A stretch of DNA of 26,603 nucleotides from a virus (Duplodnaviria; Caudoviricetes): positions 1-26,603 of IMG/VR virus record IMGVR_UViG_3300011261_000111; one strand, given 5' to 3'. Positions 387-18,317 of this stretch are shown here, piece after piece; position 1 is the stretch's first letter, and the number at the start of each line of letters is the position of its first letter. Made by a program: the position numbers and the translations under genes. The notes under the pieces were generated by a model, which was not told the origin of the DNA, made no database searches, and worked only from the letters and a program-made list of their open reading frames with translations.

Positions 387-414
387 TTGCAATTATTTTT
401 ATATAGATTAATAT
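387..414 (+). promoter_or_regulatory. Sigma70-like promoter of the RNA cluster with AGATTAAT box
   Basis: TTGCAA(387-392)-16 nt-TAATAT(409-414); AGATTAAT at 405-412. Confidence 0.65.
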
Positions 415-424
415 TGATTTGTGT

Positions 425-562
425 CTTAGGGCGATGCGGTGCAAACAAGTTTGGGTTACTCCTTTACCCTACACGCTTGAACAGCAATATAAGTAAATCG
501 TCTAGCGCAGGGTTTTAGTAATTTTTCCCCTCATAGCTTGGTTTCCTTCTCCAAGTGCGCGC
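425..562 (+). ncRNA. Putative structured sRNA with C/U-rich anti-SD loops
   Basis: Hairpins GGGT-TACTCCTTT-ACCC (453-469), AGGG...CCCT (509-531) and CTTGG-TTTCCTTCT-CCAAG (537-555); closing stem GCGCA/TGCGC (505-509/556-560); no plausible ORF. Confidence 0.45.
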
Positions 563-573
563 ATAAAAGAAGG

Positions 574-714
574 GTGTTTTAATCTACCTTGTTACTTTAT
601 CGTGTGGCGAAGGCGATAGCAGGCCGAGTTCTGTGTTTTTACTGAATGTGTGCACGCAGGATGTAAAGTAAGTCTAAGAGGTTCGAATCCTCATAACAGG
701 GTAGATCAAAACAT
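574..714 (+). ncRNA. tRNA-like structured RNA without canonical anticodon arm or CCA
   Basis: 574-594 pairs with 694-714 (20 of 21 including GU); T-arm GAGG-TTCGAAT-CCTC at 678-692; D-like hairpin TATCGT-GTGGCGAAG-GCGATA at 598-618. Confidence 0.6.
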
Positions 715-911: not shown

Positions 912-989
912 TGGGAGGAAGCTATCTAGGTGATGGCACTCGGCTGTTAACCGAGAATAAGGTGGGTTCGAATCCAACCCTCCCAGCCA
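912..989 (+). tRNA. tRNA-Asn(GTT)
   Basis: Acceptor TGGGAGG/CCTCCCA, anticodon arm CTCGG-CTGTTAA-CCGAG, T loop TTCGAAT, discriminator G, encoded CCA. Confidence 0.95.
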
Positions 990-993
990 ATTC

Positions 994-1069
994 AGGCCTA
1001 TAACTTAATGGTTAAAGTAAGGTGCTCATAACACTTAAATCGTGGGTTCGATTCCCCGTAGGCCTACCA
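994..1069 (+). tRNA. tRNA with CAT anticodon, probably Ile2 (lysidine) rather than Met
   Basis: Acceptor AGGCCTA/TAGGCCT with C4-G69 and C5-G68 (TilS determinants), loop CTCATAA, T loop TTCGATT, encoded CCA. Confidence 0.9.
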
Positions 1070-1072
1070 ATT

Positions 1073-1207
1073 TAGTTTTTATTCGCATGGTGAATGCACG
1101 GGCTGACGTGCTAAAGACAAGAGCAGATACATTAAGCTCGTCCCTGATTCAGGACTGCCGAGTAAGCTAGAAATCAGCACTAGCCACCAGCCGAATAAGA
1201 ATTACCA
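1073..1207 (+). ncRNA. C4-antisense-type RNA (P1 C4 / P4 CI-like fold)
   Basis: TGGTG/CACCA core stem; hairpins GCACG-GGCTGA-CGTGC and GCTAG-AAATCAGCA-CTAGC whose loops (GCTGA/TCAGC) can kiss; 13-bp outer stem 1073-1085/1192-1204 followed by CCA. Confidence 0.8.
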
Positions 1208-3007: not shown

Positions 3008-4240
3008 TTATGCTCTCTTTACTACTTGCAAGAAAGACCCAACCTCAACCGTCATGTTTGTTGTGTTTGTCTGGTTCGCAACTTGAAGTTTTACATAGTC
3101 GTTAAACCTCAAACTTAGAGGGTAATAGAAGCTAATTAGCGCCACATCACGACCACCAATAATCGATAGAACTTGCTGTGTTGCCGTATATACTTCGACA
3201 AATTCAGATTCCGAAGAGTCCCATTTAGTCAGCCTTACCGAAATAACGTTATTTGCACCTCCATCAATATAGAATGTCCCGATTGCTAAAAACTCCTGCG
3301 GATTCTTTCCGTCGTTTTTTAGTTGGCCATTAACATCGCTAGAAAAGTGCTGCAAATTGCTAGCACTCCAAGTTCCAGCCGCATCAACAAAAACTCCCGC
3401 TGTGCTTATTGTGGTTTCAGTTTCAGAGCTGACAATTAAGCGACCGCCTTCATGCGTGTTTCTAAGGCCGTTATTATCACGCCACTCGCACACTAGGTCT
3501 TCTGGATCTAGGTTTGGGAAGAGTTGATTGTCGCCAGAGCTAACAACGCCGTTTCGCGAGTACTGTCCGCCATTCATTTGACACAACGAACTGTCTAAAA
3601 AGTTTGACGTTGAGAAGTCGCAGAAACTTGCTCCTGACGGTAGGTCAACACGCATATTCGATCTAAATCGGCTATCTAGTGTTAGTGCTGTACCTGCCTT
3701 AAATAGCGATCCAGTAAACCCAGAATCAAGTCCACGCGTCAGGCATGTGTCAATAAATATTCCGTTCATGCTTCCTGATAGTGTCAATTCTGGAGACCCG
3801 CCGAAAATGCCGCAGTTAAGCATACTAAGCTGTCTGTATCCATCAAGCTCACCTAGACTTGAGCAATCATAGAAATTGACAGAAAGCATTTCCATTGCAG
3901 ATTCGCCAGAATCCGAAAGGTCGTTAACTTTTGAGTTTGCACCTGTCACGGAAATATAAATGTTGCTGATAAAGACGTTTCCCGCGCCAGATCCGCTAAA
4001 AAGCGTAAAATTGTCTGCGGTTGATCCGATACCAGTTAGGTCTGACTGAGTTCCACGAATAAACAACCCTCCGGACGGCACGGTGATTTCATCTACCTCA
4101 AGAAGCCCGTTGTAATCTATCCAGTATTCCACGTCAGAACTTGGATTTGCTGGCATATCTGACCGTTTTTTTACCCAGACAATTGTGCTAGGCGTGCTTT
4201 CTGATAGCTGTGCAAATGAAATGCCTGAACTTGGGTACAT
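3008..4240 (-). CDS. Probable virion protein with beta-helix-like region and C-terminal beta-sandwich
   Basis: 410 aa, S/G/T/N-rich beta-strand repeats, downstream of the MCP. Confidence 0.6.
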   Translation of the reverse strand: MYPSSGISFAQLSESTPSTIVWVKKRSDMPANPSSDVEYWIDYNGLLEVDEITVPSGGLFIRGTQSDLTGIGSTADNFTLFSGSGAGNVFISNIYISVTGANSKVNDLSDSGESAMEMLSVNFYDCSSLGELDGYRQLSMLNCGIFGGSPELTLSGSMNGIFIDTCLTRGLDSGFTGSLFKAGTALTLDSRFRSNMRVDLPSGASFCDFSTSNFLDSSLCQMNGGQYSRNGVVSSGDNQLFPNLDPEDLVCEWRDNNGLRNTHEGGRLIVSSETETTISTAGVFVDAAGTWSASNLQHFSSDVNGQLKNDGKNPQEFLAIGTFYIDGGANNVISVRLTKWDSSESEFVEVYTATQQVLSIIGGRDVALISFYYPLSLRFNDYVKLQVANQTNTTNMTVEVGSFLQVVKRA

Positions 4241-4609: not shown

Positions 4610-4915
4610 CTACTTACCCCAGCCTAATGACTTGGCGCGTTTACGAAGCGTGCTGATCTTGCTATTTCCGCCTGCTGCTTGGCCTGTTTTATCAAGAATG
4701 AAAGCGCGCAATTCCGCTTCTTCGTCCGATCCAGATTCCTCAACGATCTCTTGCTTTGGCGTTGCCACTTCAAGCTCAACTTGCCCAACAGTTACTGCTT
4801 TAGCGCCAAATAGATTTGGATTGCTTGTTTCAATAACAGTGCCAACCTCTATTTTTTGCAGCTTTCCAGCAACTTGATAGAAGCAATTTTCTTTTATTAC
4901 TTTTCGATTATACAT
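4610..4915 (-). CDS. Post-capsid small protein with HeH/Rho-N-like C-terminus
   Basis: 101 aa directly after MCP; ELEVATP motif; ELRAFILDKTGQAAGGNSKISTLRKR; GGAG SD. Confidence 0.65.
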   Translation of the reverse strand: MYNRKVIKENCFYQVAGKLQKIEVGTVIETSNPNLFGAKAVTVGQVELEVATPKQEIVEESGSDEEAELRAFILDKTGQAAGGNSKISTLRKRAKSLGWGK

Positions 4916-8319: not shown

Positions 8320-8993
8320 ACATTATTCGCCTCATGCAATTTGGTGTAAATGGACTGCCCTCGCGCGCGTATCTGGTCTTTTTCCACTTGGCCTAACTCG
8401 CGTCTTTCTTGGCAGTACTCAAGGAACACGCAGCCGTCAATGTCACCGCTAGGCGTGACGACTGGGTAAATGTAAATGGATTTTACGCTGTGTTGCTCAA
8501 GTATAGGATAGGCGCAAGGCGCTTCTTTCTCTGCAATGGATATATCAGAAACTTCGACAGACTTGCCGATAATGATGCTTCGCGACCACTTGCCATAAGT
8601 TGACATCGGCATACTTTGTACACGCCCAGTAATTCGAGGAAACTTGCCGCTAGATCCTTCTGCTTTGATTGAGAAGCTAAGCAGGTGGACACAGCCTAAT
8701 GATGTGCGCCCATTGTGAAACAAGCCCATACACGCTCTGTCAGCGCCAAAGTCCTTGGCCAATTCCGTAAGCTCTCTATCCGCTTCTTCTTCCGCGAGCG
8801 CCAGCGTTTTAAGCGATTTCTTGGCAGGCAATGCCGCATTGACGATGTTGTGAATGCTTCTAGTGTTCGACAATAAAAGCATCACCATCTTGGTCATAAA
8901 CGTGATAGCAGCAAGGATAACAAGAGCCGCAATCAATGGCGTAAACCACGGGTAATCCTTCACAAAATTCAGTAGAGGTATAATTTCAATCAT
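8316..8993 (-). CDS. Single-TM GAF-domain protein, probable T4 T-like holin
   Basis: One N-terminal hydrophobic helix, then GAF-type motifs (FGADRACMGLFHNG; VKSIYIYPV..IDGCVFLEY); overlaps the endolysin start. Confidence 0.65.
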   Translation of the reverse strand: MIEIIPLLNFVKDYPWFTPLIAALVILAAITFMTKMVMLLLSNTRSIHNIVNAALPAKKSLKTLALAEEEADRELTELAKDFGADRACMGLFHNGRTSLGCVHLLSFSIKAEGSSGKFPRITGRVQSMPMSTYGKWSRSIIIGKSVEVSDISIAEKEAPCAYPILEQHSVKSIYIYPVVTPSGDIDGCVFLEYCQERRELGQVEKDQIRARGQSIYTKLHEANNV

Positions 8994-18208: not shown

Positions 18209-18317
18209 AGCGGTAACCTCGTTATGGTTAGTCGTTACTGATGATAGTGTTGCGCCAAGCTGGGTAACGAATCCAGCCTTTCAGCCGCTAAACCTAGGCG
18301 CAATAATGATTATATCA
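18209..18317 (-). promoter_or_regulatory. Promoter plus structured c4-a1b1-like leader of the HNH gene
   Basis: TGATATAAT extended -10; stem TGCGCC/GGCGCA (18251-18302); loop UCGUUAC complementary to downstream GUAACGA and AUAACGA at the SD. Confidence 0.6.

Follow-up and report, generated by a model that had tools for sequence, protein, structure and literature searches.

Phages do make stable, tRNA-shaped RNAs that do not decode, as exemplified by RNA C of phage T4 (rnaC, or species 1 RNA; NC_000866.4, positions 70908–71046), which is described in the accessible parts of two reports as expressed late and of unknown function (PMC3014915; PMC9697503). Other tRNA-like RNAs depart from the standard plan in different ways. 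Allo-tRNAs are defined by a 12-bp acceptor branch divided as 8/4 or 9/3, and some allo-tRNA-like RNAs lie in polycistrons and are not aminoacylated by Escherichia coli enzymes, according to the available portion of PMC7609411. The Y RNA YrlA is a non-decoding tRNA mimic with a T arm, carries the motif GNCGAAN0-1G near its 5′ end, and is encoded beside Ro60 (PMC4201824, available in part). With respect to phage genomes, tRNA-rich regions are proven counter-defence loci, as far as the accessible sections of PMC11555353 and PMC13096335 describe them. Examples are tRNA-Tyr of T5 and SP15 acting against retron-Eco7, tRNA-Lys acting against PrrC, and tRNA-Tyr of T6 acting against Septu. In the SP15 case, rescue was lost on changing the anticodon (PMC11555353, in the part available), and the choice between "decoy or supplement" is left open in the corresponding part of PMC13096335. 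Finally, the PeSL cassettes of T4-type phages are short conserved modules—promoter and stem-loop units between protein genes—that mark DNA exchange in a hypervariable region, as described in the available part of PMC2839356.

The RNA element considered here (positions 587–701, plus strand) lies in a 26.6-kb virus record of IMG/VR, which was analyzed in its entirety (hereafter the window) and has an estimated completeness of 60%. Genes for terminase, portal, head-morphogenesis, head-decoration, and capsid proteins are on the minus strand. Among annotated phages, the best match to the capsid protein is 43% identical, and closer capsid relatives (65–87%) occur in metagenome bins labelled Thalassolituus, Marinomonas, and Acidiferrobacterales, so that a marine gammaproteobacterium is the likely host. 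An Rfam int-alpA match (38.4 bits, with a gathering score of 35.8) was observed at 18233–18304 on the minus strand, between the small terminase gene and an HNH gene. The gene at 3008–4240 has no relative in viral_contigs.

A plus-strand stretch of about 900 bases (390–1310) is non-coding and constitutes an RNA array, with a tRNA-Asn, a tRNA-Met, and one more folded RNA at its end. No open reading frame of at least 60 amino acids was found to overlap 574–714, leaving no coding alternative. The array was compared with those of two close IMG/VR relatives, L002 and L003—capsid 87–88% identical, leader and spacers the same, but contents differing—and with DNA-type contigs of seven public runs (X1, X2, X4, X5, X7, X12, and X16). 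A candidate array promoter (TTGCAA, 16 nt, TAATAT; 387–414, plus strand) has both hexamers invariant in all three aligned arrays; a consensus promoter scan, returning two sites against 2.8 expected, did not include it. The conserved structured leader RNA of the array (418–573, plus strand) is present in all three arrays, with 5 of its 37 predicted pairs changed on both sides; it heads the array in L003 (1617–1780, minus strand) and L002 (8875–9045, minus strand) as well, and has no Rfam match. A hairpin-rich spacer (821–907) lies ahead of the tRNA slots and is kept in L002, L003, X1, X2, X4, and X5 while its neighbors vary. The slots themselves hold tRNA-Asn(GTT) (912–989, plus strand; 42.3 bits in Rfam) and tRNA-Met(CAT) (994–1069, plus strand; 54.3 bits), both called by ARAGORN and both with CCA encoded. 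The last RNA is a multi-hairpin structured cassette (1078–1200, plus strand; z = −3.44, 0 of 200 shuffles) with a GGGCTGAC motif. RNAs of this type occur once in the window and twice in L002 (8695–8815 and about 8336–8503, minus strand), with the motif occurring once in L003 (about 1520, minus strand). The interior of the 1078–1200 cassette is exchanged in X1 and X5, and neither Rfam nor phage blastn gave a match to this RNA. Just behind the array lies a dATP/dGTP diphosphohydrolase gene (1644–2117; PF18909, E = 6.7e-31).

In an initial annotation, 574–714 had been described as having an acceptor-like helix of about 20 bp, a 6-bp D-like stem with GG in its loop, an arm of about 55 nt replacing the anticodon arm, and a T loop directly preceding the acceptor strand, and each of these features was located there. 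The long helix (574–594/694–714) does contain 20 pairs over 21 positions, the exception being an A581·C707 mismatch. However, only its inner 8 pairs, formed by 587–594 and 694–701 (plus strand), belong to the element as an acceptor-like stem, whereas the outer 13 positions, 574–586 and 702–714 (plus strand; pair probability 0.73–1.0), are a closing stem common to other cassettes. The predicted pair probabilities of the acceptor-like stem are 1.0 for the outer five pairs and then 0.88, 0.60, and 0.44. The T arm (678–692, plus strand; probability 1.0) carries the loop TTCGAAT (682–688) on a stem of only four pairs (678–681/689–692), the fifth position being an A677·A693 mismatch, and the single unpaired A693 separates it from the acceptor strand. 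CCA is not encoded, in agreement with the annotation: TAG follows directly after G701. The D-like arm (597–619, plus strand), with stem 597–602/614–619 and an 11-nt loop containing GG at 606–607, can be drawn as proposed, but has a probability of just 0.25–0.37 at 37 °C because a helix between 592–600 and 663–671 competes with it. At the place of the anticodon arm is an irregular 55-nt arm (621–675, plus strand), consisting of a 4-bp closing stem (621–624/672–675; probability only 0.12–0.13), a 9-bp helix (628–636/654–662; 0.71–0.83), and a variable tip. Fourteen candidate hairpins, each closing a 7-nt loop with four or more of five pairs, are drawable within 597–675, yet none is a credible anticodon arm; a Y-U…R loop is present in one of the 14, on a stem of three G–U pairs and a mismatch. 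The absence of a 7-nt anticodon loop, as originally described, is thus upheld. A degenerate class II tRNA parse (stem 616–620/628–632, loop AGGCCGA) was rejected, having four of five pairs, no U33, and a 44-nt variable region. By inspection, the element has no equivalents of U8–A14 or G15–C48.

The 574–714 segment as a whole folds with z = −4.37, none of 200 shuffles being as stable, and its reverse strand with z = −4.28. For the core without the outer stem (587–703), z is −1.30 and 18 of 200 shuffles are as stable, indicating that most of the folding signal comes from the closing stem. Among 188 tiles of 141 bases covering the window, z is below −4 for the tRNA-Asn tile only; the tile over the element, which cuts the outer stem, is outside the top 10. 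Shuffling 574–714 reproduced a T arm like this one in 18 of 20,000 cases, and such arms occur about 0.1 times per shuffled whole window. With the acceptor, D, and T helices enforced, the cloverleaf was calculated at −46.2 kcal/mol, versus −46.3 kcal/mol for the free minimum, in which 592–600 pairs with 663–671 and the D arm is lost. This latter fold is the minimum-energy fold at 37 °C, where 2,000 sampled folds included the rival helix 1,062 times and the full cloverleaf 212 times. At 10, 20, and 25 °C, the rival helix occurs in 47, 167, and 260 per 1,000 samples, respectively, and the full cloverleaf in 235–256, with both the 8-bp acceptor and the D-like arm belonging to the minimum-energy fold at 10–25 °C. 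The cloverleaf is hence predicted to be one of two near-equal folds.

The element is outside the tRNA, tmRNA, Y RNA, and allo-tRNA families and is uncatalogued in Rfam 15. Its TTCGAAT loop on a 4-bp stem has the T54-U55-C56-R57-A58 signature of the tRNA T arm (RF00005), but the 5-bp stem, 7-nt loop, U33, and purine 37 of the tRNA anticodon arm are lacking, and a further pair is removed by G648T in the variant described below. ARAGORN, as had been expected, and three Rfam searches gave no call on the element, while the nearby true tRNAs scored 42–54 bits; at E values as high as 10 there was no Rfam tRNA match, even when the search was confined to 151 bases, and no hit to a known tRNA carrying an insertion emerged. 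Together with the missing anticodon loop, these results bear out the initial view that this is not a decoding tRNA. tmRNAs have an alanine acceptor with G3–U70 and a tag reading frame; in the element, the third pair is U–A or U–G depending on register, and there was no ARAGORN tmRNA call and no Rfam match. The 8-bp acceptor and 4-bp T stem do reproduce the 8/4 division of an allo-tRNA acceptor branch, a plan that is also common to tRNA-Sec-like tRNAs. However, the anticodon arm and the long variable arm of allo-tRNAs are both absent in the element, which instead has one 55-nt arm, a 2-nt variable linker, and the extra A693 between the T stem and acceptor.

The GNCGAAN0-1G motif of YrlA is matched by 606–613 in the D-like loop, and by 1,190 of 20,000 shuffles (6%) as well. 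In YrlA, the acceptor stem is a hairpin between the T and D arms (PMC4201824, in the part available), whereas the arm order of the element is acceptor 5′ strand, D-like arm, long arm, T arm, and acceptor 3′ strand, with the acceptor ends open. YrlA is encoded within about 4 kb of a Ro60/TROVE gene; no such gene was found in any of four phage records, one of which is at least 90% complete, while the window record, at 60% completeness, ends 573 bases upstream of the cassette; the control was found in 2 of 14 genomes.

Among known RNAs, T4 RNA C comes nearest, the two having a plan in common but no sequence homology. Both lie in a phage tRNA cluster, have acceptor-like ends and a TTCGAAT T loop directly ahead of the 3′ strand, replace the anticodon arm by long structure, and lack CCA in the gene. 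RNA C differs in its two long arms and 5-bp T stem and has matches in 751 phage records, whereas the element combines a D-like arm with a T stem of 4 bp and a generic closing stem, and is rare. A six-sequence RNA C covariance model (R2) gave 174.5 bits for T4 and 6.2 bits for the element (E = 9.9), the latter through the T arm only, and the pairwise score between the element and rnaC was equalled by 126 of 500 shuffles. A local resemblance to rnaC around 623–649 was dismissed as lacking significance: with the T arm excluded, 333 of 500 shuffles did as well. This precedent for the architecture had escaped the initial annotation, as had the generic nature of the outer helix and the swappability of the element.

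Further anticodon-less tRNA-like RNAs, from unrelated phages, were observed among the loci retrieved by pattern. An unrelated phage (L038) carries two in tandem in its tRNA region (589–710 and 462–575, minus strand), with a common scaffold and different long arms; a single-sequence covariance model of the element (R1) scores L038 at 17.9 bits (E = 0.13), and a weak, two-sequence model of the L038 RNAs, the pair most like the element (R3), gave no match at 587–701 up to E = 10. In L008, L010, L020, L040, L070, L043, and L054 (near 590–710; 361–465 in L043), an acceptor and T arm occur without an ARAGORN call, several of these having a leucine-type D arm and a long helix replacing the anticodon arm. 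A relative at greater distance, L093, carries at the corresponding genomic position (4765–4889, minus strand) a tRNA with a 53-nt D-loop insertion, whose anticodon loop is CACTTAA (A at 33), and which was missed by ARAGORN but scores 45.4 bits in Rfam.

In the three arrays that were read completely, the closing stem, with flanks GTGTTTT… and …TCAAAGCAT-like ends, is wrapped around four distinct payloads—this element (141 nt, flanks included), payloads of 57 and 107 nt in L003, and one of 120 nt in L002. Payloads without the acceptor/T-arm module are also held by it, and most of the other payloads are not tRNA-like. Two payloads of this stem in L003 (1305–1420 and 1565–1630, minus strand) have ATAG…CGAAGCTA in common; as judged by eye, an H-type pseudoknot is possible in the larger one, which also contains a T-loop-like GG-TTCGTAT-CC with just two contiguous pairs. 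In X1, X4, X5, and X7, similarity to the window ends at 580–582, with other letters beyond, and in X12 position 582 is joined to 708 by 91 other letters, that is, by a different payload in the element's own slot. Other slots of the array contain tRNA-Trp in L002 and L003 and inserts of 71–110 letters in X1 and X5. The element is missing from all four related records searched, three of which are incomplete; X1, X2, X4, and X16 are without cover over the element, which by itself says nothing on absence. From the four payloads, and from the like behavior of the seven runs, it follows that the 13 outer positions form a generic cassette stem and that the tRNAs and non-coding RNAs of the array are exchanged slot by slot. 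By analogy with the PeSL cassettes, this exchange may occur by recombination at the flanks, although the modules here are two halves of one stem around an RNA payload rather than promoter and stem-loop units. The more original point is this generic closing stem, which makes the array modular.

A variant of the element was found in X5 and X7 (two of the seven runs; seawater, one study), which carry 590–701 with nine differences, 103 of 112 bases being identical (92%). Its similarity to the window stops at 701, and since this limit falls at the acceptor-like stem, 587–701 was defined as the unit. Three of the nine differences are displayed, all of them in the long arm and none in the D stem, T stem, or acceptor. 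G660A changes an arm pair from U–G to U–A, while G648T and T649C, in the arm tip, break a mini-stem (640–642/648–650) and spare an alternative register (640–642/650–652). The variant's flanks differ from those of the window, but inspection by eye of the loose contig ends shows every one of the 13 outer positions paired: there are double changes at 583/705, 584/704, and 586/702, the mismatch at 581/707 is repaired, and two further changes are one-sided. Positions 588 and 589 are changed too, with pairing kept if 699–700 are unchanged. The covariation seen is that of the generic flank, the core having been read at three of its nine differences. Decay without compensatory change, named in the initial annotation as an argument against its own reading, is not apparent, this one variant keeping its pairing where the letters are visible. 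The upstream context of the variant is a hairpin found in L002 and not that of the window, so that the element occupies another slot there. By these comparisons, 587–701 moves as a unit.

No homologue besides this variant was obtained by pattern searches, blastn, a single-sequence covariance model, or searches of bacterial genomes. The exact T arm and acceptor pattern had no match in viral_contigs; two gapped patterns retrieved 64 and 34 loci, among which nhmmer found no homologue; and a flank pattern gave 53 loci, with the 5′ flank in only one of these, the L003 phage. Against 50,697 phage records, blastn returned one 24-nt chance match to the element and only tRNA matches to the region, and nothing useful for the leader or an L002 cassette. 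The covariance-model search of phage sequences proposed in the initial annotation was carried out with R1, and yielded the element itself and weak tRNA-type matches only in 76 sources (a subset of the loci), and no match in 56 further sources. The element had no match in 401 genomes from the order to which a Thalassolituus metagenome-assembled genome belongs, and 3 of 86 family genomes matched in short tRNA-region pieces only. A metagenome scan with a spacer gave three loci, namely one copy of the L003 contig and two chance matches, and a scan of genome_contigs with a capsid alignment gave 19 loci, none having the array.

Overall, we consider it probable that 587–701 is a genuine tRNA-like RNA that does not decode, is under selection, and is housed in an exchangeable cassette. 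As to its role, we tentatively favor that of a decoy, without decoding, for tRNA-binding or tRNA-cutting proteins of the host, a quite possible reading that we hold at somewhat below even confidence. The array would be transcribed as one RNA from the promoter near 387–414, and a double-strand cut of the RNase III type in the closing stem—suggested by the pairing of leader with trailer in that stem—would free the ends. RNase P and CCA addition could then treat the 12–13-bp acceptor/T stack as a pre-tRNA, giving a stable RNA of about 115–120 nt. Its elbow, formed by G606/G607 and the T loop, would offer a tRNA surface, with the long arm lacking an anticodon, and the RNA would thereby occupy tRNA-targeting nucleases or sensors while staying out of decoding.

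The decoy reading is favored because the element has slots and a predicted transcript in common with true tRNAs, because its patchy distribution is as expected of a cartridge directed at particular defences, and because an HD_4 domain gene, of a RelA/SpoT-type hydrolase family, lies directly behind the RNA array of L003 (358–873, minus strand; absent at that place in the window). Phage tRNA-rich regions being proven counter-defence loci also favors it, the variable tRNA array resembling these regions as a likely counter-defence locus itself. On the other side, the counter-defence tRNAs decode and the element cannot: the loss of rescue on anticodon change, in the accessible part of PMC11555353, makes the supply of decoding tRNA the proven mechanism, which counts against a decoy. 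The missing equivalents of U8–A14 and G15–C48 and the 4-pair T stem likewise count against decoy tRNA mimicry. For the reading as a whole, the rarity of the T arm among shuffles, the near tie of the cloverleaf with the free minimum, the variant, the exchange of payloads, and the precedent of T4 RNA C speak in favor, and the majority of the rival helix at 37 °C, the ordinary stability of the core, the single variant from one study, and the absence from the four related records speak against. No account of this element or of anticodon-free phage tRNA decoys was found in the literature covered, the original T4/T5 small-RNA papers and most subscription journals being outside that coverage.

It is also conceivable, though unlikely, that the acceptor/T half is a maturation and stability handle and that the 55-nt arm works by binding a protein or target RNA, which corresponds to the scaffold proposed in the initial annotation. 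The 9-bp arm helix is indeed the best-supported inner helix and its pair is kept by G660A, and other phage RNAs of like plan (L038 and L040) have unrelated long arms. However, of the three changes displayed, the tip loop contains two, so that its sequence is not fixed, and no target or partner for the arm was identified. Distinctly unlikely, in our estimation, is a structured RNA of another type, with helix 592–600/663–671, no D arm, and the T loop serving an internal tertiary contact. This would agree with the calculated minimum at 37 °C, with its majority among the 2,000 samples, and with most payloads of the same stem not being tRNA-like, but the rival helix recedes at 10–25 °C, an exact tRNA T loop is followed by an 8-bp stem, and a GG lies 12 nt past the acceptor strand, at about the D-loop place.

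The element could in principle be a tRNA gene that has an insertion, is decaying, and is passed on without function, but this seems improbable. The D-like loop can be aligned with a D arm belonging to a phage tRNA-Cys (24 bits, E = 0.004), a match that is partly imposed, as the locus had been fetched by a pattern holding the motif; moreover, L093 provides a relative with an inserted tRNA, and most relatives are without the element. Yet no Rfam tRNA match appears at E up to 10, versus 45.4 bits for the inserted tRNA of L093, no remnant of an anticodon arm is seen, and the unit survives under another flank with 103 of 112 bases unchanged. A role as an RNase P signal punctuating the array transcript for the neighboring RNAs is very improbable: the 12–13-bp acceptor/T stack has the right shape and the non-coding stretch of about 900 bases has two true tRNAs, but the ends of the element are sealed by the 13-position stem, relatives with an equal leader lack the element, indicating that the neighbors do not depend on it, and the idea is further weakened because the closing stem holds payloads without the acceptor/T-arm module. 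Mimicry of a Y RNA, binding host Ro60 (Rsr) through the D-loop motif, is scarcely credible. In its favor is the presence of that motif near the 5′ end together with a T arm, as in YrlA (PMC4201824, available in part); against it are the frequency of the motif in shuffles, the lack of a TROVE gene in all four phage records, the D-then-T order with open acceptor ends, and the lack of an Rfam match.

The element presents the plan of T4 RNA C in an unrelated sequence, and in a slot occupied by other RNAs in natural relatives. This exchanged slot offers a ready comparison, the promoter region and closing stem being constant and the payload varying. If, as the decoy reading has it, the element protects from tRNA-cutting defences, non-decoding tRNA mimicry would join tRNA supply as a means of counter-defence, and a whole set of uncatalogued phage RNAs would be flagged by the closing stem. 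More speculatively, and in our view doubtfully, the array may be a plug-in RNA arsenal, in which the closing stem would be both the transcript release signal and the DNA exchange point, allowing tRNAs, tRNA mimics, and small pseudoknots to be exchanged by slot in response to host defences, and 587–701 an anticodon-free decoy cartridge that jams a tRNA-cutting or tRNA-sensing immune protein. Were this so, it would amount to counter-defence by RNA mimicry, which is absent from the literature searched, and would provide a lead to the role of T4 RNA C.
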